A stretch of DNA of 64,000 bases from Alphaproteobacteria bacterium (GTDB taxonomy: Bacteria > Pseudomonadota > Alphaproteobacteria > Rs-D84), in the NCBI GenBank assembly GCA_015062525.1, contig SUUM01000002.1:82964-146963 (forward strand), given 5' to 3'. The position numbers were made by a program, and so were the translations under genes. Below the pieces are notes generated by a model. That model ran no database searches, was not told where the DNA came from, and saw only the letters and a list, made by a program, of their open reading frames with translations. Positions 3,954 to 42,003 of this stretch are shown here, piece by piece (the stretch's first letter is position 1; every line of letters starts with the position of its first letter).

Positions 3954-4102
3954 AATACATCCCTTTGTTATGATTATATTTTAATATACTTTGGGACTCG
4001 ATTCAATCCCATTTTGCATAAAAATATGATTTTTTACTTATTAGGGTTTACATTTTATTATTCACCCTTTATAATGTATTTTACATAAACAAGGTAAAAC
4101 AA

Positions 4103-10803: not shown

Positions 10804-11793
10804 TCAGTTCCTTCTTTTTATTGCCAATTTTGCCGCACGCGCACACAGTTTTAATGCAAAGTCGCGCAATAAAACCTCGCCCGGCATGCCGGTTGTGCGC
10901 AGTTGGCGTTCCAATTCATTTAATCGGACCAGAACGGCGGTAATTTCCGCGTCTGGCCATATTTTTATTGCCTGTTTGAATTTATCTTCTACTTTCCAGA
11001 ACAGCCGTGGCAACTGTCCATCCACAACCGCGGTTTGCAGTTTTTTGAAATGCCCATCCAGCATACGGACCAGCATATTGGGTTCCTTGTTGTCGTACAG
11101 CAGTCTGTCCAACGCCTGCATAGTCTGTTGAATATGTCCCGCCGTCAAGGAATACAGAAAATCATCCAAATCCGCCGCCCCTGTATCCGGCAGACATTTT
11201 TCCACATCTGACAATTCTACAATTCGTTTGTCGTCAACATACAGCGCAATCTTGGTCAAAAATCCACGTGTAATCCCGCGGTCCCCCCCAAGGTGCGATG
11301 TCATATACGCCATGGCATCCGGTGTAATTTGTTGAATCCCCGCCGCGGCTGACAGTTCATTGCGAATTAATGTGGCAAGTGTTCGTGCATCATCGGTATA
11401 GCACGCCAATGCCGCCATATCATCCGCACCTTCGAACAGGGAACGCAATCCACCCCCCGCACGCAAATCGCCACCGGCAACAATTACCGTTGCGCACAGC
11501 CCAGAATGACCGACCAAATCTGCAACTTGTTTTGCGCATGCGTCACCTGCGTTGGAAATAATTACCATTTTGCGCCCACCGAACATAGATGGTGTACATG
11601 CCTCGGCAAACAGGGCGTCTTGCTTTTCGCGCAGTTCGTCAGAATCTAATGCAAACAGGTTGTCTTTTTCTATCCCCAGTTTTTTGACCGCTAAATCACA
11701 GTATTCATCAACCTGACCGGCGTCGGGTCCATAAATCAGCACAGCGCGGATTGTATCAATACCATTCTTAAAATCAGCATCCTTCCACTTCAT
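10804..11793 (-). CDS. holA: DNA polymerase III delta subunit
   Basis: N-terminal AVLIYGPDAGQVDEY; ~330 aa; lies immediately downstream of lptE in the conserved lptE-holA arrangement. Confidence 0.75.
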   Translation of the reverse strand: MKWKDADFKNGIDTIRAVLIYGPDAGQVDEYCDLAVKKLGIEKDNLFALDSDELREKQDALFAEACTPSMFGGRKMVIISNAGDACAKQVADLVGHSGLCATVIVAGGDLRAGGGLRSLFEGADDMAALACYTDDARTLATLIRNELSAAAGIQQITPDAMAYMTSHLGGDRGITRGFLTKIALYVDDKRIVELSDVEKCLPDTGAADLDDFLYSLTAGHIQQTMQALDRLLYDNKEPNMLVRMLDGHFKKLQTAVVDGQLPRLFWKVEDKFKQAIKIWPDAEITAVLVRLNELERQLRTTGMPGEVLLRDFALKLCARAAKLAIKRRN

Positions 11794-16165: not shown

Positions 16166-17050
16166 ATGTTTGTAAGCGAAAAATTAAAAACATTCTCTTG
16201 GATAAATGTTGGCAATCCCGACCACGAAGATTTTGAAAAACTGCAAACCCAGTACAAGATTGACGAAGATACAATATCCGACATTTTGGACCCAGACGAA
16301 CAGCCACGCCTTGAAATCGAAGATGATTACAAGGTTATAATTGTCCGCTTTCCAATTATCAACCGTGAAACCGATACCCTGTGGCATACGGAACCGTTAT
16401 CGATTATTCTGTCGTCAAACCGCGTTATAACGGTCTGTCGCAAACGTTGTGATTTGCTGGATAAAATTAAAAAGTCGGAAAAAACATCGCGCGAAGAATT
16501 TATATTAAACATTTTGTACTATATCGCGGAATCATACCTGCGCATGTTAAAGGAATTAAACAAACGCGTTATCGCGTCCAAGCGTGTATTGCTGGAACGC
16601 ATCCGCAAAAAAGAATTACTTGATTTATTAGAGGTTGAAAACAGTTATACCCTGTACATGGCGGGCATACGTGGTAATGTTGCTGTGCTGGATAAATTGG
16701 AAAAGGTTCGCGGTTTTGTTAAAACAGACGAAGCCCAAGAACTGGCCGAAGATGCCCGCATTGAATTGGCCCAGGCGACCGAGGTTGTTGCATCATACAG
16801 TAAAATGTTAAAATCGATTAAAGAAACATTCGAAAGTGTTATTAACATGGATTCGAATACAAACATTAATCGTTTGACCATATGGAATATTTTATTAGTG
16901 ATACCGACGGTAATTGTTGGCTATTACGGCATGAATGTCCAATTGCCATTTGCCGAACATGATGATATTGCCCTGGCTATATTTATGTTTATTATGGTAT
17001 TACTGTTGGGGTTTGCGATATTCAGCGCAATCCGTCGTCGCATTGTGTAA
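16166..17050 (+). CDS. corA: CorA-family Mg2+/Co2+ transporter
   Basis: YYGMNVQLPF (GMN motif) followed by two C-terminal TM helices. Start placed after a GGGGGA RBS. Confidence 0.75.
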   Translation: MFVSEKLKTFSWINVGNPDHEDFEKLQTQYKIDEDTISDILDPDEQPRLEIEDDYKVIIVRFPIINRETDTLWHTEPLSIILSSNRVITVCRKRCDLLDKIKKSEKTSREEFILNILYYIAESYLRMLKELNKRVIASKRVLLERIRKKELLDLLEVENSYTLYMAGIRGNVAVLDKLEKVRGFVKTDEAQELAEDARIELAQATEVVASYSKMLKSIKETFESVINMDSNTNINRLTIWNILLVIPTVIVGYYGMNVQLPFAEHDDIALAIFMFIMVLLLGFAIFSAIRRRIV

Positions 17051-17254
17051 TTGCTGTGGTTGCGTATTGTGCAGTTCCAACGGACATTCGGTCATGGCAA
17101 TAAACATAATTTTTTGATATGTCGTTAATGACACCCAACCTGTGGTTATTTTATGATATTCTAATTCGGTTTCAATTGCCAAAATGTCGCACATTTTAAA
17201 AACAGGTATCCCCAGTTTTTGCCTGGTTGCCTCTATCTGATGTCCAATTCGCAT
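17000..17254 (-). CDS. Small hypothetical protein
   Basis: ORF only. Confidence 0.25.
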   Translation of the reverse strand: MRIGHQIEATRQKLGIPVFKMCDILAIETELEYHKITTGWVSLTTYQKIMFIAMTECPLELHNTQPQQLHNATTDCAEYRKPQQ

Positions 17255-17500
17255 GCTGTCCCCATTTGTTCACGTAAAACAAAAACCGCGATTGAGAATC
17301 AAAAGCGGTTGGAGTTTAAGCACAATTTAAACGAAATTGCGGGCTTATTCAATATATTCACCACACTCCAACCATCAGTTGGAGGTTTATCGTCTTTTCA
17401 GACGCGTTTAAATGGGTGCTTAATCCCAGTACTGGAAAATCCCCAGTACCCATACATTATACGATATCTAAAACACAATTTCAAATGCTTCGATAAATAA

Positions 17501-17950
17501 AAGTTTAGTTAAGATATTAATTTTTAGAAATTAAGCACCATTACCTGCCCCCGTCGGGCCCCGAAAAATTCAGATGAATTTTTTGGGTGACTTTGTGGGG
17601 CGGGACAGTTTTACTTGACCCGCCATGCGGGTCTTTAGTAAAACTTGGGTGGGGGCAAACATCGCATACGATAACACCAGAACAGAATACATAAAATCCC
17701 AGGGCTATAAACTAATCCGTATTCCCAATACATATTTGACCCGCACAGGAATAGATGAAGTTGTTCATACTTTGCACAGGTGCATACAAGATAATCTGGA
17801 TGTGCATAATTATTTTGTGCCTCGATATAACTAACACCCCCCACCCCGGAATTCCAACGCCAATAAATTGTCGGGAATTCCGCCCGCCCCACACACAGGG
17901 GGCAGGTAATGGTGCTTAATTTCTAAAAATTAATATCTCTGTTAAACTTT
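17501..17950. mobile_element. MITE-like non-autonomous element with 52-bp terminal inverted repeats
   Basis: 17501-17552 equals the reverse complement of 17898-17950 at 48/52 positions. Four mismatches cluster near the outer ends and the inner 39 bp are perfect. The interior contains further hairpins and no transposase-sized ORF. Confidence 0.7.
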
Positions 17951-17959
17951 TGTTTAGCG

Positions 17960-18200
17960 GGGTAAATGGGGGATTTTTAATTAAAGCGCAAAGAGCAATG
18001 AGCAAAGAGCAATTAATATTAAGACTTGTCATTCCTGCGTAGGCAGGAATAGGGTCTAGGAAGTTAATTTGGCGCACGCTGTGCGCGATTTCAAGTCCCT
18101 ATCCCCGCCTGCGCGGGGATGACAAAAATCATAGATTTTTGTAAAAACTAATGACTGATGACCGATGACTAATGACTGATGCCCAATATAAACATTGATT
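17960..18200. repeat. Cluster of short tandem repeats and GC-rich palindromes
   Basis: gcaaagagcaatgagcaaagagcaa; hairpins cattcctgcgtaggcaggaatag and atccccgcctgcgcggggat; and aatgactgatg-type 11-mers repeated ~4x (18150-18182). Confidence 0.55.
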
Positions 18201-18209
18201 TATATTGGA

Positions 18210-18569
18210 TTACAGTACAATCAAACATATCCACAATACAACGACAGATATTATTGTTAACATAACAACCGCGCTGCCGATATCTTTTACACGTCCCGAC
18301 ATTGGATTATATTCTGCCCCAATTCTATCAATGACGGTTTCTAACGCTGTGTTAATCAATTCAGCCAAGATTATAAAAGTCAGCGAAAACAACATGATAA
18401 TACGGTGTAATGTTGGGACGTCGATAAAAAATTGTAATGCGATACCGCCAACACATAACATTAAATCCTGTCGAAATGCGGCCTCGGTCTTGAAAGTGCT
18501 TACCAACCCATTCCACGAGTATCCAAATGCCCTAAGAATACGTTTGATACCGGTGTGTTCAGATTTCAT
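18210..18569 (-). CDS. dgkA: Diacylglycerol kinase
   Basis: ILRAFGYSWNGL...FRQD... and three TM helices typical of DgkA; 119 aa. Confidence 0.8.
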   Translation of the reverse strand: MKSEHTGIKRILRAFGYSWNGLVSTFKTEAAFRQDLMLCVGGIALQFFIDVPTLHRIIMLFSLTFIILAELINTALETVIDRIGAEYNPMSGRVKDIGSAVVMLTIISVVVLWICLIVL

Positions 18570-19984
18570 CTTCTTGTTCCTGTGTTAAGATAAAAATACA
18601 AGTCGTTTTTTTGTTCCAGCTTTTGTCCCAATTCAATGTCGTCATATCGTTCACGCAATGTCTTGACGTCTTGGCACCTGGTGGCAAGTGATACCCCCAA
18701 CCCTAAACGGCACCCATCTATGACGGCACCCGCAGCCTCTAAAACCGTGGGGAAAAAGTCCAAGGCCGAGACTGGTCTGTTCATATTCGCGCCATCAAAA
18801 ATATGTGTGTTAATGAAAACGTTTGCCAATGGACGATTTGGAATGTGTTGTAATGTTTTCATTAAATCACCTGCGGTTTGATTGTGGTCATTTACCAAAA
18901 TTACAACGGCGTCTGGGTCGACGGTACGAAACCATCGAACAAAGTCACCAATGATACGATCGTCGCATCGGGTGATATCCGCCATGGTTTCCTGGGGAAA
19001 ACCCAGATTGCGACAGTAATCTGTAAAATAACCTTCAAGGTGAGTATTAATGGTCTCCATAAATATAAAATATGGCTTTTCAGATTTTATAATGTCAACA
19101 ATCTTAGGTTTTGCCCAATCAAAGAATGTTCCATCATCAATCCCACCAAATGGTCGTTCTGTGGGTGGATTTTCTAATTCTGCGTATATCTGTGGTCCAT
19201 CTATTACATTATTAAACCCCATACATTTCATAAAGTTAGATTTCAGCGAAAACGAACCGCTTGCGGGGAACATAGACCAAGTTTGATATCCATTATTTGA
19301 CATTATGGTCCCCAACCCGTCGGATACCCCCAACATTTTTTCAATCTTACGAAAACGGGTGTGAAACAACGGCAAGCCTGTTGTAAATCCAGTTATTGCG
19401 GCAATAGTATGCGTTAAACCCGCCACAGAATGATAGTTCAAGAAAGAAGCGTGTGATTGCTCTAGCATGCCTATTTCCGGCGTTAACAGTAATCCATCCC
19501 CCCAATCGACAGAAGGGTTGCTGTAAGCGCGCTCCATGCTTTCCAATGCAATAAACAGTACATTGCGCTTTTTCGACCAAGAGATATTTACGTCTTTGGC
19601 ATCAACATACTCTGATTCATAGAAATTTGATTTTTGGAAATTAATAAAACTGCCAAACTGTACATTGCTGACGCACAGCTCGTATCCCAGCAAACCAATG
19701 CACAAAACATATATGCACGGCATTACGTATTTTCGGTTGCGAAATACATAGCAAACAAATGTCAACCCCACGGCAATCCCAAGTGCCAAGAACACAACAT
19801 CGTTCATAAAAGACCAAAACAACCATGGGTCCGAACCTGCTGCCGTGCCAGAGCTCAAGACAATGGCAATTTCGTCAAAGTTCACACGTTTGAACAATCC
19901 GTAAACCCAGTGTGCTGATCGCGCAAACGCTAACAAGATGAATATGGATAAAAAAACTATAACATATTTCAACAGCGTCTTCAT
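18566..19984 (-). CDS. Membrane-anchored sulfatase / alkaline-phosphatase-superfamily transferase (phosphoglycerol or phosphoethanolamine transferase-like)
   Basis: N-terminal multi-TM region followed by a sulfatase-like domain. Stop overlaps dgkA, and the dgkA pairing is typical of lipid-headgroup transferases. Confidence 0.65.
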   Translation of the reverse strand: MKTLLKYVIVFLSIFILLAFARSAHWVYGLFKRVNFDEIAIVLSSGTAAGSDPWLFWSFMNDVVFLALGIAVGLTFVCYVFRNRKYVMPCIYVLCIGLLGYELCVSNVQFGSFINFQKSNFYESEYVDAKDVNISWSKKRNVLFIALESMERAYSNPSVDWGDGLLLTPEIGMLEQSHASFLNYHSVAGLTHTIAAITGFTTGLPLFHTRFRKIEKMLGVSDGLGTIMSNNGYQTWSMFPASGSFSLKSNFMKCMGFNNVIDGPQIYAELENPPTERPFGGIDDGTFFDWAKPKIVDIIKSEKPYFIFMETINTHLEGYFTDYCRNLGFPQETMADITRCDDRIIGDFVRWFRTVDPDAVVILVNDHNQTAGDLMKTLQHIPNRPLANVFINTHIFDGANMNRPVSALDFFPTVLEAAGAVIDGCRLGLGVSLATRCQDVKTLRERYDDIELGQKLEQKNDLYFYLNTGTRR

Positions 19985-20057
19985 ACGAACAATTCTAAAT
20001 CCGAAACATAATCATGGCAAGGACAAAATTCCGATAAAAAATAGAAATATATACCAA

Positions 20058-20248
20058 AGAAAAACACCGCCGTTGCCGGCGGTATTTCCGAGTGTCCCGA
20101 AAGGAAGGAAAGGAGAAAAAGAAATTGGACACTCTAAACTGTGGTGTGGGCACCAGAGTCCAGAGGAGAGAGAATGTAGGAGGGAGTCTGAACCTCTGGT
20201 CCCCACGTGATGTTTTCACATCTGTCATTGGGTTTTGTCCCTTTGACG
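20058..20248 (-). ncRNA. Candidate sRNA (~190 nt) with consensus promoter and intrinsic terminator
   Basis: On the minus strand: -35 TTGACG (20283-20278), a 17-nt spacer, -10 TATATT (20260-20255). Nested hairpins with CU-rich loops (cuccCUCCUacauucucucuccu, uuucuuuuucuccuuuccuuccuuuc). Terminator ccgccggcaacggcgg + UGUUUUU (20083-20060). Confidence 0.5.
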
Positions 20249-20431
20249 ATTTAGAATATAGTACACTAAAATCGATTCGTCAAGCGTTTTGTCAAAAAAA
20301 ATTTTTGTATTATTAAAATACTTGTATTCCTAGGAAATGGTCCTTGTTGTTTTGCCCGTATTTCTGGAATAAAATCAACATCGTATCAGACGAAAGGTTT
20401 TTTCTGGTGCATAACCAAGAGGGAGAAAAAA

Positions 20432-20677
20432 ATGACACATGAAGATGTCTGGCGTGCCATAGAACGCTTTGCAACAGAACACGGTATGTCATGTTCTGGG
20501 TTGGCAAAATGCAGCGGTCTGGATCCGACAACGTTCAATAAAAGCAAACGTTGGTCCAAAGAAGGACAACCACGATGGCCGTCCACCAACAGCATTTCCA
20601 AGATTTTGTCGTCCACAGGGGCCAAGATTCAAGACTTTACCAAGTTTATTGATCCACCGGAACCTGTGCGCGACTAG
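20432..20677 (+). CDS. Small HTH DNA-binding protein (phage CI-repressor-type HTH); paralog of 49062-49307
   Basis: SGLAKCSGLDPTTFNKSKRWSKEGQPRWPSTNSISKIL, preceded by a GAGGGAG RBS. A terminator follows at 20704-20734. Confidence 0.55.
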   Translation: MTHEDVWRAIERFATEHGMSCSGLAKCSGLDPTTFNKSKRWSKEGQPRWPSTNSISKILSSTGAKIQDFTKFIDPPEPVRD

Positions 20678-20811
20678 ATTTCACCGGTCTTGACACCCCA
20701 AAAACCGCGATGCACCCCACCGCGGTTTTTTATTGCAAAATAAAGAATACTATGCTACTAAAACCGCAAAGGTTTGCACGATGTCGTTAATCTTGACAGA
20801 AGGAGAAAGCC

Positions 20812-21003
20812 ATGCTGAAAAACAAAGTTTTAACAGAAGAGATTATCCAATCAATAGACAATACAATTCGTTTGTTGCGTGAATTAAAGTTAGATAACGA
20901 GCAAGACAGAAAGCATGTAGAGGGCAGAATTGCCGCACTAGAATGGATTAAAACGGGGCAGGGTGGCAAGATTGTTGTTAATGTTCCAAAAGAAATGAAA
21001 TAG
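20812..21003 (+). CDS. Small hypothetical protein (63 aa)
   Basis: Preceded by a GGAG RBS and followed by a terminator (cgcccgattgggcggtttttt, 21016-21036). Confidence 0.4.
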   Translation: MLKNKVLTEEIIQSIDNTIRLLRELKLDNEQDRKHVEGRIAALEWIKTGQGGKIVVNVPKEMK

Positions 21004-21075
21004 TCGTATGTCAAAATCGCCCGATTGGGCGGTTTTTTATTGGACAAGGGAATTTATATATTCTAGAATTAATCC

Positions 21076-21495
21076 ATGTTAAACGGTGTTCGTATTTATG
21101 CATCAGACACAATATGGCGCCAAATCCTGACCGACTTTGGGGCAACTGTTTTGGACGCACCAAATCCCACGGATATAAACTTTGACGATTTGAATGTTTC
21201 TGGGCCATTAACCCCAATGGAATTAAAATCATTGATATTGAACGCTAACGATGATGCGGCTGTTTTGCGTGATGTATTTGGGGCGGATGTGTCCTTGTCG
21301 CGGGTTCCGGCTCAAATCGTGGTTGCCTTGCATAAATCAGGTGGCATGACCGGCAATGAATTAAAGGCGGCATTGGGCTATGCGCCCGATGTTGCAACAC
21401 ACACAATTGATACCGCAATTTATCAGTTGCGTCGTACATATGGACGTGGATTTATCGTTAACACAAATGGGGTATATCGCATTGGCAAACTATAA
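21076..21495 (+). CDS. Hypothetical protein
   Basis: 139-aa ORF; no motif recognised. Confidence 0.4.
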   Translation: MLNGVRIYASDTIWRQILTDFGATVLDAPNPTDINFDDLNVSGPLTPMELKSLILNANDDAAVLRDVFGADVSLSRVPAQIVVALHKSGGMTGNELKAALGYAPDVATHTIDTAIYQLRRTYGRGFIVNTNGVYRIGKL

Positions 21496-22147
21496 ATTAC
21501 TATCTTTTGATAAAATCCCAAGTACCCAGGATTACGCATTGGAATTAATCGCATCTGGTCGTGCAACCGACCATACGGCGGTCCTGGCGGCGGCCCAGTC
21601 TGCGGGGCGCGGTCGCATGCGTCGCACATGGGTGTCCCACCATGGTAATGTGTACATCAGTTTTATTTACGCGTCCCCGGAACGCGATGCACGCCTGTCT
21701 TATGCGGTTGCGGTTGCGATTGCGGAAACAATTGCATCATTTGGTATTCATCCGACGATTAAATGGCCAAACGATATTTTGGTTAATGGTAAAAAAATTG
21801 CGGGCACATTAATTGAATATTCTGGCAATTTTGTGGTTGTTGGAATTGGCATAAATGTAAATTCAAATCCAACGGTTGACCGATACAAAACAACCAAAAT
21901 GGACAATTTTGCCGAAATTCCTATGAATGAATTATTAAATCGTCTGATGCGCAACATGGATAAATGGCGTCGTGCGGATTTTCGTGCGGTGCGCGCCCGT
22001 TGGACGGAATTAGCGGCGTGTATTAATTGCCCGGTAAAATACCAGGGCGAATCGGCGGAACTGATTGGAATAAACGAAAATGGCGCATTGGTTTTGCGTC
22101 GTGGTTCGCGCTATTTGTTGGTATATGGTGATGAAATAAGCGTATAA
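21467..22147 (+). CDS. birA: Biotin--[acetyl-CoA-carboxylase] ligase
   Basis: ASGRATDHTAVLAAAQSAGRGRMRRTWVSHHGNVYISF (GRGRxGRxW motif). Start placed at the internal Met; the ORF is open from 21380. Confidence 0.75.
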   Translation: MGYIALANYKLLSFDKIPSTQDYALELIASGRATDHTAVLAAAQSAGRGRMRRTWVSHHGNVYISFIYASPERDARLSYAVAVAIAETIASFGIHPTIKWPNDILVNGKKIAGTLIEYSGNFVVVGIGINVNSNPTVDRYKTTKMDNFAEIPMNELLNRLMRNMDKWRRADFRAVRARWTELAACINCPVKYQGESAELIGINENGALVLRRGSRYLLVYGDEISV

Positions 22148-22316
22148 ATCCCTGGATTTCAGCGGGTTTGAAAATATTATCTTGACTTTTATCTGAATTT
22201 GTGATATTATATAACACATAAACAGCACAAATTCTGTCCACAACACGCGTTGTGGTTTTTTTATTCCCCATGTATTTTCTGCATGGGTTTTTATTTTTTA
22301 ACAATAGGGCCATCAA

Positions 22317-22733
22317 ATGCAAATGACATTAATAAAAAATCCAGACACGTCTGGGACTTCAAACATGGCATATAAAATCGCGCGGGTTGTCTATGCGCAA
22401 ACGGGTGGGGCATCGTTGCCATTGGTATGTGCATTTACATCAATGATAAAAAATTTATCAGACGCATCGGGCGTTGCGATATCTGATTTGATTGGCGATA
22501 AAACAATATTTCCGGCCCTGGGGGATTCGGATATAAATCATGTACGTCTGCATGTGCCGGCACAAAATCGTGCATTTCAAATGTGCGTACGTACGGCGTA
22601 TCGGATGCTGATGGGGCAACTGCCGGACAGTTGTTATGGCGCCACGCGTTTTCATTACTCGGATGAAATACCCGCATGGGCAACATCGCGTGGATACATT
22701 GCAGATATAGATGGCATATTATTTTATTTGTAA
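22317..22733 (+). CDS. SleB/Hydrolase_2-type cell-wall hydrolase (phage endolysin-like)
   Basis: IARVVYAQTGGASL... and ...GATRFHYSDEIPAWA resemble the conserved Hydrolase_2 ends. First gene of the phage-like cluster. Confidence 0.45.
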   Translation: MQMTLIKNPDTSGTSNMAYKIARVVYAQTGGASLPLVCAFTSMIKNLSDASGVAISDLIGDKTIFPALGDSDINHVRLHVPAQNRAFQMCVRTAYRMLMGQLPDSCYGATRFHYSDEIPAWATSRGYIADIDGILFYL

Positions 22734-22744
22734 TGGTCATATTC

Positions 22745-22942
22745 ATGAAACGAATAATACGCGGTGGATACCTGTCTGGGTATCGTACATACATAATTTC
22801 TGCAACGGGTATTTTGTCAGCCATTGGTGCATACCTGGTTGGCGATACAGATTTGTTCACAATGTTGCAGGCAATATTTACATTGGCTGGAATATATTTT
22901 CTGCGCCGTTCAAACGAAACCAAAGGAAAAAATAATGGATAA
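22745..22942 (+). CDS. Small two-TM membrane protein (holin-like)
   Basis: Two hydrophobic helices and a charged C-terminus, immediately after the putative endolysin. Confidence 0.35.
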   Translation: MKRIIRGGYLSGYRTYIISATGILSAIGAYLVGDTDLFTMLQAIFTLAGIYFLRRSNETKGKNNG

Positions 22943-23591
22943 CATCCCAGAAAAATTTCGCAACAATGATGGAACATTGAATACAGATGCGTTAATGCGA
23001 TCTTATAATGAATTGGAAAAAAAGATTGGCACAATGGTATCGATTCCAAATGAAAATTCAGATGATGCTGCGCGCCAAAAATTTAATCGTGCAATTGGTG
23101 TTCCGGACAGTGCATCTGAATATCCGACCAATGAATTATATGATGATGAAAATCTGCGTCAAAAATTTTTTGAAATAGGTTTAACAAAACACCAGGTGGA
23201 AAAAATTTATGATATAGCGAACGATTTTTTATCACCAGTAATTTCAGAATTGTTTGCCGCGCGTGATGATGTATCTGCGATGAATGAATTAAAAAATTTC
23301 TTTGGTGGCGATGAAAAAATGCTAGATGCATTGCGTGCGATAAACACATTTGGTGAACGTTTTTTACCACAAGATGCATTTGAATCATTGTGCGCCACAC
23401 CCCAGGGAATTCAAAGCGTGTACAAGATGATGCAATCAATGGAACCAAATATTAAAACAGACAAAAACGAAAATGAAAATTTATCAGATTCTGATTTGCG
23501 TCGCATGATGCGTGATCCAAAATATTGGCGTGATGGTGATACAGAATACATTCGAAAAATAGAAAACGGTTTCAAAAAATTGTATTCATAA
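22935..23591 (+). CDS. Putative phage head scaffolding protein
   Basis: N-terminal MDNIPEKFRNNDGTLNTDALMRSYNELEKKIG matches the IPEKF..DG..D.DAL.KSY.ELEKK scaffold signature of podovirus-like phages. Acidic and helical. Confidence 0.5.
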   Translation: MDNIPEKFRNNDGTLNTDALMRSYNELEKKIGTMVSIPNENSDDAARQKFNRAIGVPDSASEYPTNELYDDENLRQKFFEIGLTKHQVEKIYDIANDFLSPVISELFAARDDVSAMNELKNFFGGDEKMLDALRAINTFGERFLPQDAFESLCATPQGIQSVYKMMQSMEPNIKTDKNENENLSDSDLRRMMRDPKYWRDGDTEYIRKIENGFKKLYS

Positions 23592-23703
23592 TTTACAATA
23601 ATGCACTTTCTGCTTTACTAAGTTTTGTAATTACGATAAAATGTAATCAAGAACAAAACAGATTTGTTCTGTCCAAAACTTTTTATATTGAAGGAGAGAA
23701 AGA

Positions 23704-24165
23704 ATGGCATTCTTGTTTAAAAGAAAAACAGCAAAGAAAGTAGTTGCTGAAAAACCAGCGGCAAAACCAGCAGCAAAGAAAGCACCTGCAAAAAAAGTAG
23801 CTGCAAAACCAGTTGCGAAAAAAGCACCTGCTAAAAAAGTGGCTGCAAAACCAGTTGCGAAAAAAGCACCTGCAAAGAAAGTAGCGGCAAAACCAGTTGC
23901 AAAGAAAGCGCCTGCAAAAAAGGTAGCGGCAAAACCAGTTGCAAAGAAAGCACCTGCAAAAAAAGTAGCGGCAAAACCAGTTGCAAAGAAAGCACCTGCT
24001 AAAAAAGTAGCTGCAAAACCAGTTGCGAAGAAAGCACCCGCTAAAAAAGCAGCGGCAAAACCAGTTGCGAAAAAAGCACCTGCAAAAAAAGTAGCGGCAA
24101 AACCAGCTGTTAAAAAAGCATGTGCAAAAAAAACATGTGCAAAAAAAGTTTGCAAGAAAAAATAA
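23704..24165 (+). CDS. Lys/Ala-rich tandem-repeat basic protein (histone H1-like)
   Basis: ~9 copies of the 14-aa unit [14 protein letters not shown] (42-nt DNA repeats at 23790-24110); Cys-containing basic C-terminus; terminator at 24179-24200. Confidence 0.65.
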
Positions 24166-24380
24166 TATCAATTATTAACCCCGCATCTGCGGGGTTTTTT
24201 AATAAAAGTATCAGTCAGATATTTGCGCAGGTCTGACTGATATTTTTTATGGATAATCCGCACCTGCGGACCCTAAAACTTTTTGTCTGATGGCGCATTT
24301 TATGCACAACCAAAATACAAAATATTTTGCGGTGCCGTACATTGGCACCTGTGTTTAATTTTATACCAAAGGATTTTTTT

Positions 24381-25202
24381 ATGTCTGTTTCCATCGATAA
24401 TGTATTTGTGAAACAATTCGAGGCTGATGTTCATTTAGCGTACCAGCAAATGGGCACAAAACTGCGTTCCACGGTTCGCAGTAAATCGGGTGTCGTCGGT
24501 GCATCCACTACATTTCAAAAGGTTGGTCGTGGCACGGCCAGCACCAAATCACGTCATGGTATTGTGCCTGTGATGAATCTGAATCACGAACCGGTTGAAT
24601 GTATGTTGGCTGATTATTACGCGGGCGATTGGGTTGACGCATTGGATGAATTAAAGGTAAATATTGATGAACGTCGTGTTGTTGCATCTGCGGGCGCATA
24701 TGCCCTGGGGCGCAAGACCGATGAATTAATCGTGTCGGCCATGAACAATGCAACGGCAAATGTTGGAGATTATTCAACTGGTCTGACCAAAGATTTGATT
24801 TTATCGGCGGTCGAAGTCTTGAACACTAACGACGTCCCAGATGATGGTCGTCGTTTTGCGGTTGTTGGCGTACGCCAATGGAATGAACTGTTGTCAATGG
24901 ATGAATTCGTATCTGCCGATTACGTAGGTGATGCGTTGCCATTGTTGAACGGGGGCGTCGCACGCAAATGGTTGGGCATTACATGGGTTCTGTATAACGG
25001 TCTGCCGGGCACAGATACAAATCGCGATTGCTTTATCTATCACGCATCCAGCATCGGTCATGCCTGTGGCCAGGAAGTCAAAACGGATATCTCGTGGCAT
25101 GGTGAACGCGCTGCACACTTTATCAGCAACAGCATGTCCCAGGGTGCGGTCTTGATTGACGGCGATGGCATTGTCCGCGTTAAATGTTCGGATGCTGAAT
25201 AA
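24381..25202 (+). CDS. Putative phage major capsid protein
   Basis: The only call basis is its position immediately after the scaffold gene and its size (274 aa). Start at MSVSIDN after AAAGGA. Confidence 0.45.
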   Translation: MSVSIDNVFVKQFEADVHLAYQQMGTKLRSTVRSKSGVVGASTTFQKVGRGTASTKSRHGIVPVMNLNHEPVECMLADYYAGDWVDALDELKVNIDERRVVASAGAYALGRKTDELIVSAMNNATANVGDYSTGLTKDLILSAVEVLNTNDVPDDGRRFAVVGVRQWNELLSMDEFVSADYVGDALPLLNGGVARKWLGITWVLYNGLPGTDTNRDCFIYHASSIGHACGQEVKTDISWHGERAAHFISNSMSQGAVLIDGDGIVRVKCSDAE

Positions 25203-25242
25203 CACACTTTGAAATTCAACTTTTAACCAAAAGGAAACACAT

Positions 25243-25476
25243 ATGGCTTTTCAGAACAAGAATTTATCTGTCATCGCGTATGCAAATGGATTTACATTGT
25301 GGCATTATTGCGGCACATCTGAAACATTGGCAACAATTAGTGCCAACGGATATTTCAATGCGGTCAAAACATTGATGAACATTGGTGATATTATCATCAT
25401 CAACGCATCAGATAACACCGCGATTAAGAAAATTAATATCACAGACCTGAATGTGACAACGGTTGCATTGGCATAA
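25243..25476 (+). CDS. Small phage-cluster protein
   Basis: ORF with RBS; context only. Confidence 0.3.
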   Translation: MAFQNKNLSVIAYANGFTLWHYCGTSETLATISANGYFNAVKTLMNIGDIIIINASDNTAIKKINITDLNVTTVALA

Positions 25477-25557
25477 CATACTTTTTTTTCTCCTTTCCTT
25501 TAGGGGTCGGCAAAAATTTGCCGACCTTAAAACATTTATAAAACCAAAGGTGCAAAA

Positions 25558-26076
25558 ATGCTTACTAAAATAGACTTATGCTCTATGGCGTTATTAAAAA
25601 TTGGCGAAAGCCCAATTCAATCATTAACCGATGACAGCGCACCTGCGAAACTGGCACGTACATTGTTTGATACTGTGATGGATTCACTTATTTCCGCCCA
25701 CCCATGGCGTTTTGCAACCCAAGTTCTGGATTTAACCAAGAACACAGACGGCGATTTTTTAATTCCGACCAACGTTTTGCGCGTGTTAAAAACATCTGGA
25801 CGCATCAACGGAAACCGGGTTGTCTGCGATGGTGACACAACAACAATAACAGCCGTTGTAAAAACGTCCCCAGAATCATATCCGGGATATTTTGTATCCC
25901 TGGCGGCGACACGCCTGGCGATGGAATTTTGTATTCCGTTAATGGGGGATCAAACAGTATTTCGCATGTTGGCGGCATTGTATGAAACAGAATTACAAAC
26001 CGCAAAGTTCATAGACAGTACAACTGCCACATCTGATGGTATATCTGATTTTTCATTAATTAACGCACGCTTTTAA
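25558..26076 (+). CDS. Phage structural protein, hypothetical
   Basis: Context only. Confidence 0.35.
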   Translation: MLTKIDLCSMALLKIGESPIQSLTDDSAPAKLARTLFDTVMDSLISAHPWRFATQVLDLTKNTDGDFLIPTNVLRVLKTSGRINGNRVVCDGDTTTITAVVKTSPESYPGYFVSLAATRLAMEFCIPLMGDQTVFRMLAALYETELQTAKFIDSTTATSDGISDFSLINARF

Positions 26077-26093
26077 TTTGGGGGATTTATCAC

Positions 26094-27809
26094 ATGGCAG
26101 ATTTTATTAAAACACAAAATTCATTTGCAAATGGTGCGGTTGCGCCCGAATTCTATGCGCGCGATAATATCAACGGCCTGTCCAGATTGGAAAATATGGA
26201 TGTTTTGGCGGGTGGCGGTCTGTCGCGTCGGTGCGGATTGCGTGATATAATTTCGTTGCGGGGACCGGCACGTTTAATACCTTTTTCCGTGTCAGATGGC
26301 GAAGAGTATATTCTTGCAATAACTGATTTTTATATTGGTATATACCAAGACGGCATACGCACTCAATCGCTAAAGACCCCATGGTCATATAATGATGCCA
26401 TGCATCTGCAATATGCCCAGCGTTTTGGAACAATGATATTTGTACATCCTGATTATCAGCCACAAACATTGTATAAATCAGGCGACACATTTTGTTTTCG
26501 TGAATTTGAATTTTCGCGCAACGATGCGGATATGACGGTTAATATGCCATTTGTAAAGTTTGATGATGCATCCGACATAAAAATAACGGTCAGCGCCCAT
26601 TCATCTGGCAATAACTATGCAACGTTCACCACAAACGCAGATTTTTGGACGCCTGAAAATGTTGGCGGTCGTCTGCATTTATTGACACGTCAATGGCAAA
26701 TCACAGAATACATCAGTCCGACACAGGTCGTTGTTCATACAAATGGCACCTATACTTTGCCGAACGCGGCTGTATCTGATTGGCGCGAGTGTGCATTCAG
26801 CACGCGTCGCGGTTGGCCACGCAGTATTACATTTCACCAAGATAGATTGGTGTTTGGTGGTTCGCGTTCATGGCCGGCGGGAATATGGCTGTCGCGTGTT
26901 GGACAACATAATAACTTTGACACTGGTACTGGTCTGGATGACGAAGCGATATTTATATCTTTATTATCGGCACAACGTCAACAAATTTGCACCGTCGTCA
27001 GCAGTGATTCATTACAAATCCTGACCAATGTCGGTGAATGGGCTATTTCCAGCAAGCCTTTAACCCCATCTGTTGTTGATATTAAACAACACACATCAGT
27101 CGGTTCGTATGTTGCGCGTTATCTGCCACCCCAGAAAATCGAAGGCGCAACCGTATTTGTATCTACATCCGGTCATGATATACGCGAATTGGCATTGGAT
27201 GAACTGGGTGAAAAATATAACGCAAATGATTTATGTGCATTTTCCAAGCATTTGCTAAATAATCCGATTGATATGGCATATAATGATTCCACGCGCCAAT
27301 TGTTTGTTGTATTGGCGGATGGCACAATGTCTGTTTTGAACCAGAATGCGGCCCTGGGGATTTCTGCATGGGGCGCGTATAAAACCCGTGGTGAATTTTT
27401 ATCGGTTGCGGTTTGTGATGGGCATACGTATGTTGCAACACACCGTGAAGATGGTGTGCATTTGGAAAGATTTGATGCAGATACAATGACGGACGCAGGC
27501 AAGTACAGTTTTTCTTTTTATGCATCTGGTCTGCCTTTGCGCGCGTCCGGGCATAATGCCACGCGTCTGCGCCTGCGCAAGATAGTGGCGCGTGTTCTAA
27601 ACACTAAATCCATATCAATAAACAATCATCAAATAACCCTGCCAAATGAAATATATGCCCCCAACCATCCTGGATTCAGCGGCGATGTTTCCGTTGGTCT
27701 GTTGGGAACCAAGAACGATTGTATGACGCCAACATGGACAATTCATGGCAACGAAGATTATCCAATAACGGTACTTTCTGTCAGTTTGCACGGTTGGTAC
27801 TCGGTTTAA
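26094..27809 (+). CDS. Large phage structural protein (tail/tubular-type?), hypothetical
   Basis: 571-aa ORF downstream of the capsid gene; context only. Confidence 0.4.
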   Translation: MADFIKTQNSFANGAVAPEFYARDNINGLSRLENMDVLAGGGLSRRCGLRDIISLRGPARLIPFSVSDGEEYILAITDFYIGIYQDGIRTQSLKTPWSYNDAMHLQYAQRFGTMIFVHPDYQPQTLYKSGDTFCFREFEFSRNDADMTVNMPFVKFDDASDIKITVSAHSSGNNYATFTTNADFWTPENVGGRLHLLTRQWQITEYISPTQVVVHTNGTYTLPNAAVSDWRECAFSTRRGWPRSITFHQDRLVFGGSRSWPAGIWLSRVGQHNNFDTGTGLDDEAIFISLLSAQRQQICTVVSSDSLQILTNVGEWAISSKPLTPSVVDIKQHTSVGSYVARYLPPQKIEGATVFVSTSGHDIRELALDELGEKYNANDLCAFSKHLLNNPIDMAYNDSTRQLFVVLADGTMSVLNQNAALGISAWGAYKTRGEFLSVAVCDGHTYVATHREDGVHLERFDADTMTDAGKYSFSFYASGLPLRASGHNATRLRLRKIVARVLNTKSISINNHQITLPNEIYAPNHPGFSGDVSVGLLGTKNDCMTPTWTIHGNEDYPITVLSVSLHGWYSV

Positions 27810-27836
27810 CACACTATAAAATACAAGGACATAAAC

Positions 27837-28184
27837 ATGGGACAAGTTGTATCAGATATAACAGAAATCTTGGATTACAAAGACGCTAAAAAGGCGGCAA
27901 AAAACCAACGCCAGGAAATTATTGCACAAATGGCGGCGGATGAAGCGGAAAAAACAAATCTGGTGAAAAAGGCATTGGCAACCCAGCGTGCAAAATACGG
28001 TGCATCTGGCATGCGCACCGCCGGGATAACCGAAGGTGCGGTGTTGCGACGCTTGAAATCGGAAACCGCCGCCCCGTACGAAGAAAAACGTCGCAACAAT
28101 ATGACAAAATTAAAAAACGCGCGTGCTAAAAAGCCAAATTTATTGAAATCTTTACTATCCAGATTTGATGATTTGGTTGGTTAA
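27837..28184 (+). CDS. Basic hypothetical phage protein
   Basis: Context only. Confidence 0.3.
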   Translation: MGQVVSDITEILDYKDAKKAAKNQRQEIIAQMAADEAEKTNLVKKALATQRAKYGASGMRTAGITEGAVLRRLKSETAAPYEEKRRNNMTKLKNARAKKPNLLKSLLSRFDDLVG

Positions 28185-28203
28185 TATGTGATGGGGGTAT
28201 ACT

Positions 28204-28755
28204 ATGTATAAAATATCTTATATCACAGACGGCTTGACAACGGAATTTGCATTCTCTTTTCCTTTTTTCCAGGTCGCAGATGTTCGCATTGCAATAAATG
28301 ATTCTGTTGGGGATGGTGCTTTTAATTACACTATTATGCCAAATGAAGATTTTTCTGGCGGAAATGTTGTTTTTGATATTGCGCCCCCCGCGGATACAAA
28401 ATTAGATATCTTTCGTCAAATATCGTTATCGCGCACAATTGATTACCAACCCACCCACAGAATAGACCCCGAAGATTTGAATACAGACTTTAACTTTCTG
28501 TTATCCGCGTTTCGGGATTTACATTCTGTGAACGTTGACCTGGTTGAATGGGCGAACATCCATGATGATATTAAATCGTTAATAAATTACACACACGATG
28601 TCATCAACGATAAATTGGGTGGTGGTGCAGTATTGGGGTTGTATCGGAATCTGGTTGGTGTATTGGAAAATGCGCTGCCTAAACTGATTAACGATTACGG
28701 TTCAATCACAGAACCCGCCCCGAATGAAAACCGCGATGATTACGGAATTTTATAG
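28204..28755 (+). CDS. Hypothetical phage protein upstream of terminase
   Basis: Context only. Confidence 0.35.
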   Translation: MYKISYITDGLTTEFAFSFPFFQVADVRIAINDSVGDGAFNYTIMPNEDFSGGNVVFDIAPPADTKLDIFRQISLSRTIDYQPTHRIDPEDLNTDFNFLLSAFRDLHSVNVDLVEWANIHDDIKSLINYTHDVINDKLGGGAVLGLYRNLVGVLENALPKLINDYGSITEPAPNENRDDYGIL

Positions 28756-29341
28756 TTTTTTAGATGAATGGAATCGTGTTCTGGGGTTGCAGACACCCGC
28801 GCATCACCGTCAAATTATGGAATTTTTATACGGTGTTTTGTGTGAAGCGCCACATCGTGGATTGTTGATGGCGTTTCGTCATTCGGGCAAATCAACGGTT
28901 GTTGGTGTGTTTGTGGCGTGTGTATTATACCTGCGTCCACAAACCAGAATTTTGATACTGTCTGCGGAATCGGGACTGGCATCGCGTATGGTATCGCACA
29001 TTCGGCATATATTGGAAAATCATCCGTGGTGTGCACATTTGGTACCACAAAATAAGAAAGAATGGGCATCCACCCGTATAACGGTTAATCGCCCAATCGG
29101 TATTCGCGAACCATCTGTTATTTGCCAGGGATTACATGGCAACATAACCGGTCTGCGTGCAGATATTATCATATGCGATGATGTGGAAGTTCCAAACACA
29201 TCCAACACCCCCCAGAAACGCGAACAAATGCGTGAACGTTTGCGGGAATTGGATTTCATCTTGTCCCCAAATGGGGCGATGATTTATATCGGCACGCCAC
29301 ACACGCACGATACAATATATCGAACCGCGGACGACGATTAA
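28724..29341 (+). CDS. Terminase large subunit, N-terminal ATPase fragment
   Basis: Walker A AFRHSGKST and Walker B IIICDDVE. Ends ...IYIGTPHT (motif III region), then a stop. Confidence 0.7.
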   Translation: MKTAMITEFYSFLDEWNRVLGLQTPAHHRQIMEFLYGVLCEAPHRGLLMAFRHSGKSTVVGVFVACVLYLRPQTRILILSAESGLASRMVSHIRHILENHPWCAHLVPQNKKEWASTRITVNRPIGIREPSVICQGLHGNITGLRADIIICDDVEVPNTSNTPQKREQMRERLRELDFILSPNGAMIYIGTPHTHDTIYRTADDD

Positions 29342-29979
29342 TTCATACTGCTGATAAATGTGCGCAGTTTTGCCAACAATTCCGCACCCGCATCACCAAA
29401 CATAGGCAAATAAGTTTCATATTCTGGCATATCGGCTTGCACTTGGGCACGCACACGTTCTGAAATCGGATTAGCAATAATTTCATTCGCCACATCCCAC
29501 AGTCTATAGGCATTATAGGTTTGTTTAACAATGTTCCATTTGTCTAATAGATTGGGTCGCGCATTTAATATTGCCCGAATGGAATTCTGCCATTCTTCGC
29601 CAAAGTTGCGTACCAGTTCCAATGACATAAACCTGTCCAGGCCTGCCTGATCTGGTGTAAATTCTTGCAGGGCATTTTCCAGTTCGCGCCATTGATTTGG
29701 GTTCAGTTTAATTGTTGCAACATCTTCGGCGGTCATCATTCCACCATATGGTAAAAGTTCTGAATCTATTGAATCCATAGCAGTTTTGCCACTGCGCAGG
29801 TTTTCAATATGTTGTACCAATAATTTACCCGTTGGCATGTCGCGCAGTTCCTTGATTACATCATCGGTTGCATCATTCACAAAAATTGGATTAACTGTTG
29901 CCCAACCGCCAATAATAACATGTTCTTGGCGATACAGGTTTAATAATCTTAATGCGATTGCGCTGGTTTTAACGTTCAT
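29338..29979 (-). CDS. Hypothetical protein (part of the opposite-strand insert module)
   Basis: 213-aa ORF; no motif recognised. Confidence 0.4.
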   Translation of the reverse strand: MNVKTSAIALRLLNLYRQEHVIIGGWATVNPIFVNDATDDVIKELRDMPTGKLLVQHIENLRSGKTAMDSIDSELLPYGGMMTAEDVATIKLNPNQWRELENALQEFTPDQAGLDRFMSLELVRNFGEEWQNSIRAILNARPNLLDKWNIVKQTYNAYRLWDVANEIIANPISERVRAQVQADMPEYETYLPMFGDAGAELLAKLRTFISSMN

Positions 29980-30003
29980 AGGTTCTCTCTCCGTCTGTGT
30001 GTG

Positions 30004-31017
30004 TTATTCCATAACAATCATAACAACCTTGTGCATGGTCTGGGCTGTGATTTTTTCATCAGGTGATGACATCTGACCATAAACTTTGCCCTTGGAATCC
30101 TGGCGTACACTGACGATTTGTGCGTTGATTGTTGTTTCATCATCCAATGCGTCAAAGTCTGTATCAATCGCCACCGCCAAATCACCAGGCTGTGCCGGGG
30201 TTGCAGAATCTGCAAACACATACGATTTTTCTGGTATAAAACCGCCCAAACGCTTGGAATTTGGTATAACCGCATAGATACCCGCGCGCCCCTCTAATGT
30301 CATGGGGGCGACAATCATAGTTTTGTCAGATTTTTTGAATGCGATTACTTTGCCCGCGGGTGTACCGAACACAGGCACCAGTTTTTTGCGTGCGCTGTCA
30401 TACAATTTTGCGCCATACAATCCGCCATGCATATCCATGCCCGACATTGGATTACCCGGCACCAGTACAGACTTAACACGTTCTTTGACCTTGCTGATAT
30501 GCTTGTTCAATTCGCCGGATTTATACAGGTTCGCGATTTTATCGAACAATTCTTCGGCACCCATTGCAAATGATTTTGCCAATGGTTCAATTTCATTTTG
30601 ATAAATTTCGCGTTGTCCAACCTCAATCTTATGATAAACGGACAGCGTCATACCGGCATCTTTGGCGGCCTGGGCGATTGTTTTGCCGGTTTGCTGACGA
30701 ATTTTACGCAGACCGCTGCCAAATACCTTCAGACCGCTGTTTTCATTGTCTGACATACGGCGTTTAATTTCGCTTTGCCATTGGTCTGCAACATCATCGG
30801 ATTCCTTGATGAAAATATCAGACAGTTTGCACCCCAGAATATTACAAATATTCAGCAACTGCTTCTGATTCAGGCGGCGCACACCCTTTTCAATCTTGGA
30901 AACAGCGGACAAAGACAACCCAGCACGACGTGCCAATTCGGTCATCTTCATACCATTCGCCAAACGAATGTTGCGTATATTATTTGGAAATATAATTTCT
31001 TCTTGGGCCATGGGCAA
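30004..31017 (-). CDS. CI/LexA-like repressor with two XRE-type HTH domains and an S24 peptidase-like C-terminus
   Basis: Two HTH_3-like segments (IRLANGMKMTELARRAGLSLSAVSKIEKG and LRKIRQQTGKTIAQAAKDAGMTLSVYHKIEVG). The C-terminal VPGNPMSGMD motif is GDSM-like, with downstream Lys residues. Confidence 0.6.
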   Translation of the reverse strand: MPMAQEEIIFPNNIRNIRLANGMKMTELARRAGLSLSAVSKIEKGVRRLNQKQLLNICNILGCKLSDIFIKESDDVADQWQSEIKRRMSDNENSGLKVFGSGLRKIRQQTGKTIAQAAKDAGMTLSVYHKIEVGQREIYQNEIEPLAKSFAMGAEELFDKIANLYKSGELNKHISKVKERVKSVLVPGNPMSGMDMHGGLYGAKLYDSARKKLVPVFGTPAGKVIAFKKSDKTMIVAPMTLEGRAGIYAVIPNSKRLGGFIPEKSYVFADSATPAQPGDLAVAIDTDFDALDDETTINAQIVSVRQDSKGKVYGQMSSPDEKITAQTMHKVVMIVME

Positions 31018-31088
31018 ACTCCTAAATGACTAATACTTGACAAAATAATAGTCAATTTAAGTCCCCCGCGCAAGCAAATAATTATAAA

Positions 31089-41918: not shown

Positions 41919-42003
41919 GCGGGTATGGCGAAACTGGTAGACGCACTGGATTTAGGTTCCAGCGGGGCAACCCATAGGAGTTCGACTCTCCTTACCCGCA
42001 CCA
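41919..42003 (+). tRNA. tRNA-Leu (anticodon UAG) with long variable arm
   Basis: 7-bp acceptor stem gcgggta/tacccgc, anticodon loop tuUAGgu, long variable arm, T-loop ttcgact, 3' CCA encoded. Confidence 0.8.

Follow-up and report, generated by a model that had tools for sequence, protein, structure and literature searches.

The 64,000-nucleotide (nt) stretch analysed here (hereafter referred to as the window; positions 82,964 to 146,963 of contig SUUM01000002.1 in assembly GCA_015062525.1, from an alphaproteobacterium of the GTDB lineage Rs-D84) carries, on the minus strand at positions 20058 to 20248, a gene of approximately 190 nt for a small RNA (sRNA). The gene is preceded by a sigma-70-type promoter (20255–20283, minus strand) and ends in an intrinsic terminator (20056–20089, minus strand). 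Upstream lies a divergent gene for an 81-amino-acid (aa) helix-turn-helix (HTH) protein of the phage-repressor-C/Cro-CI type, assigned by family searches (HTH81; 20432–20677, plus strand), and downstream lie a sulfatase-family gene, nearest to phosphoglycerol transferase, and dgkA. A preliminary description, made from the letters of this DNA, had placed the element between these flanks and had proposed an independent sRNA gene of this length with its own promoter and terminator. Here we report a comparative sequence analysis that strongly supports this proposal, by the stability of the fold, the score of a covariance model and the conservation of homologues. The locus is a real non-coding RNA gene, strongly promoted and Rho-independently terminated, and its two pyrimidine-rich loops are invariant on structurally conserved stems.

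The promoter consists of TTGACG (20283–20278), a 17-nt spacer and TATATT (20260–20255), as the preliminary description had read it, and gives 10 of 12 matches in a promoter scan. In this A+T-rich region the scan found 4 promoter-like hexamers against 3.0 expected, a count that by itself is not above chance, so that the case for the gene rests on comparative data. Across homologues, the promoter is strikingly conserved as CTTGACAAAT-N17-TAT(T/A)ATATT, preceded by TTTTTTTGACAAAA, and a second box, TTTTTTTGACA(AAA), which sequence reading and conservation place just 5′ of the −35 element (20290–20300, minus strand), is kept in nearly all of them. The complement of this box, TTGTCA, could be the −35 element of the divergent HTH promoter. 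We infer the 5′ end of the sRNA from where the −10 box lies and from the onset of conservation at UUCGUCAAAGG; its 3′ end is the U-tract of the terminator. A terminator scan located the latter, which the preliminary description had also anticipated, at 20089–20060, with a 13-pair extended stem (core CCGCCGGCAACGGCGG) followed by the U-tract; its stem, GGAAAUACCGCCGG-CAAC-GGCGGUGUUUUU, corresponds to the covarying helices 5 and 6 described below. With a promoter and terminator of its own and conservation across species, the gene has the features of an independent, trans-encoded sRNA.

The 193-nt segment from 20248 to 20056 has a predicted minimum free energy of −74.3 kcal/mol, compared with −48.8 ± 4.2 kcal/mol for 200 dinucleotide shuffles (z = −6.14; 0 of 200 as stable). 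The predicted fold comprises four hairpins and the intrinsic terminator, all on the minus strand. Hairpin 1 (GUCA..GGG..CCC..UGAC; 20224–20247) appears in both the fold and the alignment, and its helices 1 and 2 keep their pairing through double changes. Hairpin 2 (GAUGU-GAAA-ACAUC; 20209–20222), seen in the fold, is variable: some lineages lack it, and elsewhere the homologous sequences differ yet stay self-complementary. Hairpin 3 (20146–20206), supported by the fold, the alignment and covariation, is a long, irregular stem carrying loop 1. This loop is an invariant 22-mer, CUCCCUCCUACAUUCUCUCUCC (20165–20186), which is unique within the window. Hairpin 4 (GAGUGUCC/GGACACUC; 20090–20134), whose helix 4 covaries, presents loop 2 (AAUUUCUUUUUCUCCUUUCCUUCCUUUCG; 20098–20126), with an invariant core, UUCUCCUUUCCUUCC, defined by the invariant columns of a 36-member alignment. 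Both of the pyrimidine-rich tracts that the preliminary description had assigned to stem-loops therefore fall in hairpin loops of the predicted fold (20186–20165 and 20126–20098). CCUCCU in loop 1 and CUCCUUUC in loop 2 resemble what we take to be the 3′ tail of 16S rRNA. Nowhere else in the 64-kb window does any part of the sRNA recur, either as a second copy or as a direct repeat.

The window itself matches a JGI metagenome contig. Using a 19-mer from loop 1 as the query against IMG/VR contigs and GTDB species-representative genomes, we retrieved six IMG/VR contigs and at least 120 species-representative assemblies, all of them different and each with one match. The hosts are nearly all metagenome-assembled genomes (MAGs) of Alphaproteobacteria from gut, rumen and termites, classed as Candidatus Enterousia, "uncultured Rickettsiales" or RUG proteobacteria. 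A small number of contigs were binned as Muribaculaceae or Bacteroides, some of them with the same alphaproteobacterial synteny, and one locus (L037) lies on a closed chromosome of 958,618 bp. The same RNA architecture recurs in nearly all of these genome loci (at least 120), and the RNA is single copy throughout this clade of uncultured gut, rumen and termite-gut Alphaproteobacteria. In two divergent lineages (L046, 1845–2240; L081, 4533–5197) the sRNA gene lies directly beside or between tRNA genes of the same strand, where stable RNAs with high expression are typically placed. A covariance model (R1) built from the 36-member alignment, with rough E-values from a shortened calibration, scores 209.5 bits at 20058–20250, its only strong match in the 64 kb, and gives divergent members 47 to 155 bits. 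One further match, in L177, is not a homologue, as it covers only the terminator and the 5′ hairpin.

Because the 120-genome set was fetched with the loop-1 19-mer, the invariance of those 19 nt within it holds by construction. To offset this bias, we made a second, unbiased set of metagenome contigs, retrieved through the neighbouring HTH protein with no reference to the RNA. All of its RNA-bearing loci (11 of 11) have 0 mismatches in the loop-1 22-mer and an exact loop-2 core; in L169 and L171 the loops are exact even though the HTH protein is only 68–79% identical and the remaining RNA has diverged. Upstream of HTH homologues below approximately 73% identity, from soil, marine and other lineages, the RNA was not found. 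The edges of loop 2 vary slightly in divergent lineages.

The stems behave as RNA helices under selection. RNAalifold, applied to a MAFFT alignment of 36 diverse members (A1), returned 36 pairs in six helices, in which 96.0% of the cells are paired, as against 33–53% when the 3′ partners are slid by 1–3 columns. Changes on both sides occur in 19 of the 36 pairs and in 75 cells, whereas shuffling gave 8.6 and 17.8, and the observed values were reached in 0 of 500 shuffles. Helix 3 has 13 pairs with 96% of cells paired and double changes in 4 of them, and helix 4 has 8 pairs with 98.6% of cells paired and compensatory double changes in 7, exemplified by the hairpin-4 variants GAGUGUCC/GGACACUC, GAAUGCCC/GGGCAUUC and GAACGGCU/AGCCGUUC. 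The invariant columns of the alignment concentrate in the two loops while the stems vary. Compensatory changes in every helix, together with the conserved promoter and terminator, indicate selection on an RNA, and a structure backed in this way is what a trans-encoded sRNA would have. The helices are probably scaffolds, with the two single-stranded pyrimidine loops as the functional parts, a view that the preliminary description had already taken of the CU-rich loops and that their constancy amid varying stems supports. When the middle of loop 1 was allowed to vary, with the pattern CTCCCTCCNNNNNTCTCTCTCC or the 16-mer CCTACATTCTCTCTCC, the only matches in viral contigs were unrelated sequences outside any hairpin, which argues that the whole 22-mer is the unit under selection.

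Loop 1 also occurs outside this gene. Three IMG/VR contigs that lack the host synteny (L009, L010 and L013) carry the identical 22-mer, displayed in the loop of a hairpin whose stem is unrelated. In L009, a 231-kb contig, two tandem promoter-to-terminator units lie at 3990–4650; one has the exact loop 1, and the other has the loop variant UUCCCUUUCCUACAUUCUCUCUCC plus both halves of loop 2. In L010 the loop hairpin (7890–7940) follows directly after a gene with a GapR domain, beside Gp157- and Rad52-like genes. In L013, a 36-kb contig whose tail-tube-B-like match is distant (24% aa identity), a TTGACA/TATAAT promoter, the loop hairpin and a U-tract lie at 11600–11730. A bacterial 5′ untranslated region (L065, 2690–2740) likewise presents the identical loop 1 on an unrelated stem. 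The recurrence of one 22-mer on unrelated phage and bacterial stems shows sequence-specific selection on loop 1 alone. The phage copies suggest that phages use the recognition code of a host RNA and, if confirmed, would be a case of phage mimicry of a host sRNA seed. A search of viral contigs with an 18-mer of loop 2 yielded mostly the antisense of ordinary ribosome-binding sites (RBSs) and no new members except L009; the complement of loop 2 accordingly looks like a natural RBS. In the window, a 16-nt stretch identical to part of loop 2 (UUUUUCUCCUUUCCUU; 25482–25500, plus strand) sits between a hairpin and the end of the small gene that follows the capsid gene; other loci do not conserve it, and it is probably coincidental.

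The element is non-coding. A 77-codon open reading frame (ORF; 19995–20228) does span it from an AUG in hairpin 1, as would suit the mRNA of a small protein, be it this ORF or a shorter peptide. Over 36 homologues, however, the loops fall in each of the three reading frames, the ORFs begin and stop at different places and vary in length, and one homologue lacks an ORF altogether; no frame is conserved, in agreement with the dismissal of this ORF in the preliminary description, and we give a coding function almost no credence.

The element is also independent of what lies downstream. In 101 loci the genes downstream of it sort into 52 unrelated clusters; 57 of these genes are convergent and 42 co-directional. 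It has neither a conserved ORF nor a fixed cis-linked downstream gene, as is fitting for a trans-encoded sRNA. In the window it lies approximately 70 nt upstream of the sulfatase-family gene on the same strand, and its terminator could serve as an attenuator; it might on these grounds be taken for a cis-acting leader, attenuator or riboswitch of the transferase–dgkA operon. However, the transferase and dgkA were not found in any other species locus fetched. They are carried on an insertion of approximately 3 kb, which, relative to the nearest relatives (L132 and L091), extends from about 17050 to 20050–20060, between the corA stop codon and the RNA terminator; in these relatives corA abuts the terminator. 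The insertion (17051–20057) holds a DUF559-like remnant, dgkA and the 472-aa sulfatase-family, phosphoglycerol-transferase-like gene. A conserved link to one downstream gene or pathway, the hallmark of a leader or riboswitch, was not found among the loci, and no cis-regulatory family of Rfam matches. The preliminary description had considered that Rfam might place the element as a cis-regulatory leader of the adjacent gene; Rfam assigns nothing, and that gene is a strain-specific insertion. With such variable downstream genes, a cis-acting leader is effectively refuted by the comparative data and is left with only a very slight probability.

The identical 472-aa protein occurs in three far-side contexts (corA; cysS and trcR; DUF559 and an OmpA-like gene), in each of which the 3′ 140 nt of the sRNA precedes its gene. 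Four independent MEGAHIT (k141) contigs from different samples (L002, L003, L004 and L006) begin exactly at 20197 (AGAGGTTCAGA), inside the sRNA gene, and likely reflect co-occurring strains that share the 3′ part of the sRNA and the transferase cassette and differ upstream. These breaks, the recurring cassette, the insertion hot spot at the 3′ flank and the presence of the 22-mer in phage contigs could alternatively mean that the element acts at the level of DNA, as a site of recombination or attachment or as one end of a mobile element, rather than as a functional RNA. This is very unlikely, given the compensatory changes in every helix, the conserved promoter and terminator, and a window with no second copy or direct repeat of any part. 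Moreover, what the phages share is the loop and not the stems, so that in their case recombination would break up the hairpin. A role as an insertion site, such as tRNA and tmRNA genes have, is compatible with a functional RNA. A hybrid prophage attachment site, considered on account of the breaks at 20197, was rejected: no repeat is present in the window, and the covariation argues for an RNA.

The explanation that best fits these observations, and one we regard as probable, is a conserved sRNA whose scaffolded pyrimidine loops pair in trans with RBSs. The loops would anneal to the purine-rich Shine–Dalgarno (SD) and initiation regions of mRNAs and block the access of ribosomes. Single-stranded pyrimidine loops typify sRNAs that cover RBSs, among them the cuckoo/CcsR RNAs and RNAIII of Staphylococcus aureus (PMC4615179). 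The mRNA of HTH81 would be the best candidate target, giving a local circuit of sRNA and regulator, and further targets would be expected elsewhere in the genome. Of the 135 genome and viral loci fetched and searched by tblastn, 97 have HTH81 next to the RNA (up to 98.8% aa identity), and its purine-rich initiation region, at approximately 20402–20437, contains an unusually long purine tract. In at least 11 loci, the HTH initiation region, GGAGAGAGAA-N1-3-AUG, perfectly complements UUCUCUCUCC, a 10–11-nt segment in the 3′ half of loop 1. The median predicted duplex with this region is −14.4 kcal/mol (n = 97), compared with −3.7 to −10.3 kcal/mol for seven syntenic genes, and in 55% of 49 loci the region is among the best 1% when every 36-nt window of its own locus is ranked. 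In the window, it pairs best with loop 2, at a predicted −14.4 kcal/mol. Two other candidate targets in the window fared differently: for the gene at 29979←29338, the complementarity to the loops is not kept in orthologues, and for that at 42585←42091, there is no orthologue in the fetched loci.

Besides the retrieval bias described above, several points weigh against this explanation. Transcription is deduced from the conserved promoter and terminator. The prediction of HTH81 as a target is weak: any strong SD sequence scores well against polypyrimidine loops, the HTH initiation region of the window is only fourth among 64 initiation regions, and complementarity between HTH gene and loops is poor in some loci (for example, L043 and L053). 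HTH initiation regions with the RNA are predicted to pair more strongly than those without it (median −12.2 versus −7.9 kcal/mol, p = 0.004), in a comparison confounded by phylogeny and G+C content. In approximately 23 divergent loci, the RNA occurs with neither an adjacent HTH gene nor, within about 8 kb, any phage-like genes; some of these have tRNA genes beside it instead. An anti-SD likeness is confined to parts of the loops, and the invariance of loop 1 exceeds what generic SD pairing would need: such pairing, over 6–9 nt, does not explain the constancy of all 22 nt, including the central UACAU. Taken together, the evidence for pairing with the HTH mRNA is suggestive only, and the pairing model does not account for the extent of the loop invariance or for the retention of exactly this loop by phages.

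This invariance brings in a serious rival, a fixed protein or rRNA partner. The RNA would then be a decoy or sponge, expressed clade-wide in a housekeeping role, with loops that mimic a conserved RNA element (such as the 3′ tail of 16S rRNA) or form the binding or cleavage site of a conserved protein; candidate partners are S1, Era or another KH-type pyrimidine binder, Hfq, and a UACAU-specific MazF-like endoribonuclease. Jumbo, GapR-encoding and T7-like phages would have copied the loop to exploit or block the same factor. The 22 nt of loop 1 and approximately 17 nt of loop 2 are invariant in more than 130 sequences while every stem drifts, and one fixed partner fits this pattern better than many mRNA seeds do. 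That three phage contigs and a bacterial 5′ untranslated region display the identical loop, each time on an unrelated stem, points the same way, and the strong conserved promoter, the single-copy spread across the clade, including a 0.96-Mb genome, and the tRNA-adjacent positions look housekeeping-like. On the other hand, the putative resemblances to the 16S tail and to a MazF site cover only 5–8 nt, the partner is only a candidate, and no protein-binding RNA family of Rfam matches; rRNA genes were not found in any fetched locus. We therefore consider the decoy possible, at a clearly lower probability than an sRNA that pairs with RBSs.

HTH81 leads into a phage-like neighbourhood. Its match to Pfam HTH_26 is weak, below the gathering score, its homologues are annotated as phage repressor protein C by JGI, and its nearest solved relative is a prophage protein. 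It is followed by a small winged-helix-like protein, birA, an unknown 138-aa protein and T7-type structural genes (20432–29341 and 33540–34775), comprising scaffold (PF05396), capsid (PF19821), tail tube A and B, a fibre-like gene, a 205-aa terminase fragment and portal (PF12236). The same order recurs in roughly 100 species-level MAGs at 50–95% aa identity (L008, L011, L012, L037, L038, L044, L111 and others), and the closed 958,618-bp chromosome keeps the HTH–birA–T7-like order. The set looks like a vertically inherited, possibly domesticated podovirus particle cluster akin to a gene-transfer agent (GTA). In the window this region is rearranged, with a truncated large-terminase ORF (28724–29341), then minus-strand genes (29338–32864) for an unknown 213-aa protein, a 337-aa HTH_3 protein and a DnaB helicase, then the portal gene (33540–34775), which suggests decay or reshuffling of the original phage gene order.

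Given this setting, the RNA might once have been a phage gene and might now serve as the regulator of a phage-derived module, controlling the adjacent T7-like cluster together with the repressor-like HTH protein, much as immunity RNAs such as c4 of P1/P7 block the RBS of a phage gene. The RNA abuts HTH81, with its repressor annotation, and the conserved structural genes follow; the 36-kb phage contig with the tail-tube-B-like match carries promoter, hairpin and terminator with the same loop, and the GapR-encoding phage and the 231-kb phage contig carry the loop too. Against this stand the approximately 23 divergent genomes that have the RNA without HTH or phage-like genes nearby, the poor complementarity of the structural-gene initiation regions to the loops, the housekeeping gene birA inside the cluster and the absence of a match to the c4 family of Rfam. 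Immunity RNAs, moreover, normally diverge between phages, and these loops never vary. We thus think a phage-module regulator unlikely, more so than the decoy. A related possibility is that the RNA and HTH81 form the switch of a vertically inherited, domesticated T7-like cluster, a podovirus-type, GTA-like system.

Several further features of this region were observed. The palindrome TTCCTAGGAA (approximately 20343–20352), or variants of it containing CCTAGG, lies 70–90 nt upstream of the HTH start, recurs at equivalent positions in L165–L176, L169, L171 and L184, and persists even where a distant HTH homologue has no RNA beside it; probably it is the operator of the HTH protein. Two near-identical HTH81 homologues with identical upstream regions (L175 and L176) lie in opposite orientation near the ends of one 33-kb contig (Ga0265301_10001307), an arrangement that could be a terminal inverted duplication. 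Elsewhere in the window are two plus-strand tRNA genes (41919–42000 and 58963–59035; 54.9 and 74.5 bits in Rfam), and its G+C content ranges from 0.30 to 0.49, which suggests a mosaic of native and acquired segments.

Riboregulation in uncultured, small-genome Alphaproteobacteria (Candidatus Enterousia and relatives, which are common in human, ruminant, bird and termite guts) is not known to have been described. An RNA that covaries in every stem, holds approximately 40 loop nucleotides invariant and stands behind a near-consensus promoter in at least 120 species is likely to be a major regulatory RNA of these bacteria, and the homologues could enter Rfam directly as a new family. With a conserved T7-like cluster on one side and an insertion hot spot on the other, the locus is in addition a useful landmark for genome plasticity in the clade.

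To place the RNA among known ones, we used Rfam 15, with gathering scores on the window, E ≤ 10 on a 551-nt region and E ≤ 5 on eight divergent homologue loci. The window yielded only the two tRNAs and no family for the sRNA, and the 551-nt region and the divergent loci yielded nothing meaningful; the Rfam/Infernal scan proposed in the preliminary description thus assigned no known family, even at permissive E-values. Sub-threshold matches to RNAI/ctRNA cover only the terminator, and recurrent matches to the ylbH leader are on the antisense strand at 22–25 bits, against a gathering score of 50, and were judged spurious. A full-text literature search for the loop sequence gave no paper.

The preliminary description had likened the loops to those of CcsR and cuckoo-type alphaproteobacterial sRNAs. 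Cuckoo RNAs carry a 9-nt motif, CCUCCUCCC, in every loop of two to four adjacent hairpins and occur in several copies per genome, and CcsR RNAs are transcribed jointly with a DUF1127 gene upstream of them, from an RpoHI/HII promoter, and bind Hfq (PMC4615179). Like cuckoo, CcsR (RSs0680) and alpha-r14 (RF02344), the RNA described here is an alphaproteobacterial candidate for action in trans, with adjacent hairpins and presumed RBS occlusion, and its stems vary freely around conserved C/U-rich, anti-SD-like loops, a shared trait that does not suffice for membership. Unlike them, it has two different and longer invariant loops (22 and approximately 27 nt; loop 2 reads AAUUUCUUUUUCUCCUUUCCUUCCUUUC) without CCUCCUCCC, is single copy and belongs to a different, uncultured gut clade. 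The cuckoo motif, CCTCCTCCC, does not occur in the window on either strand, and RF02344 gave no match at any of the three thresholds above. Whereas CcsR is transcribed together with an upstream gene, the present RNA has its own conserved sigma-70-type promoter directly 5′, and its upstream gene is divergent. The likeness holds for the working principle of loops and stems, not for membership.

A second comparison is with RNAIII and the Rsa-type sRNAs of Staphylococcus aureus, in which UCCC loop motifs make the first contact with target RBSs, including that of the regulator rot (PMC4615179). The C-rich loop motifs and the regulator as a target parallel the proposed circuit of sRNA and HTH protein. 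The S. aureus RNAs, however, belong to another phylum, are unrelated in sequence and use a short motif of 4 nt, and the target here is a candidate only. The c4 immunity antisense RNA of phages P1 and P7 (RF01695) is a small RNA beside phage regulatory genes whose loops pair in trans with the RBS of its target and differ between heteroimmune phages. The present RNA likewise adjoins a phage-type regulatory gene, with a proposed loop–RBS pairing, but its loops are invariant across the clade, its gene is chromosomal and it also occurs without phage-like neighbours; Rfam gave no match to this family, the initiation regions of the adjacent T7-like genes are poorly complementary to the loops, and that of the HTH gene alone shows a complementarity, which is suggestive only.

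The closest resemblance in setting is to the Brt RNAs of Bartonella, structured RNAs of approximately 200 nt with their own promoter and terminator, which are linked to XRE/Cro-type HTH regulators (Trp) in a phage-rich region, lie upstream of trp on the same strand, number 2 to 34 copies and are restricted to the genus (PMC5387305). Both are alphaproteobacterial, highly structured and about 200 nt long, with their own promoter and terminator, a small HTH neighbour and a phage-rich context; here, by contrast, the HTH gene is divergent rather than downstream and the RNA is single copy in the window. The conserved Brt probe sequence (PMC5387305, supplement) has 0 matches in the window at up to three mismatches, and distant-mode blastn against plasmid and phage collections, in which the presence of the Brt-bearing B. 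grahamii plasmid was not checked, gave no match. On the missing probe sequence, the divergent arrangement, the blastn result and the single copy, we reject membership of the Brt family. Collectively, these comparisons identify the RNA as a new family of a known general kind of riboregulator.

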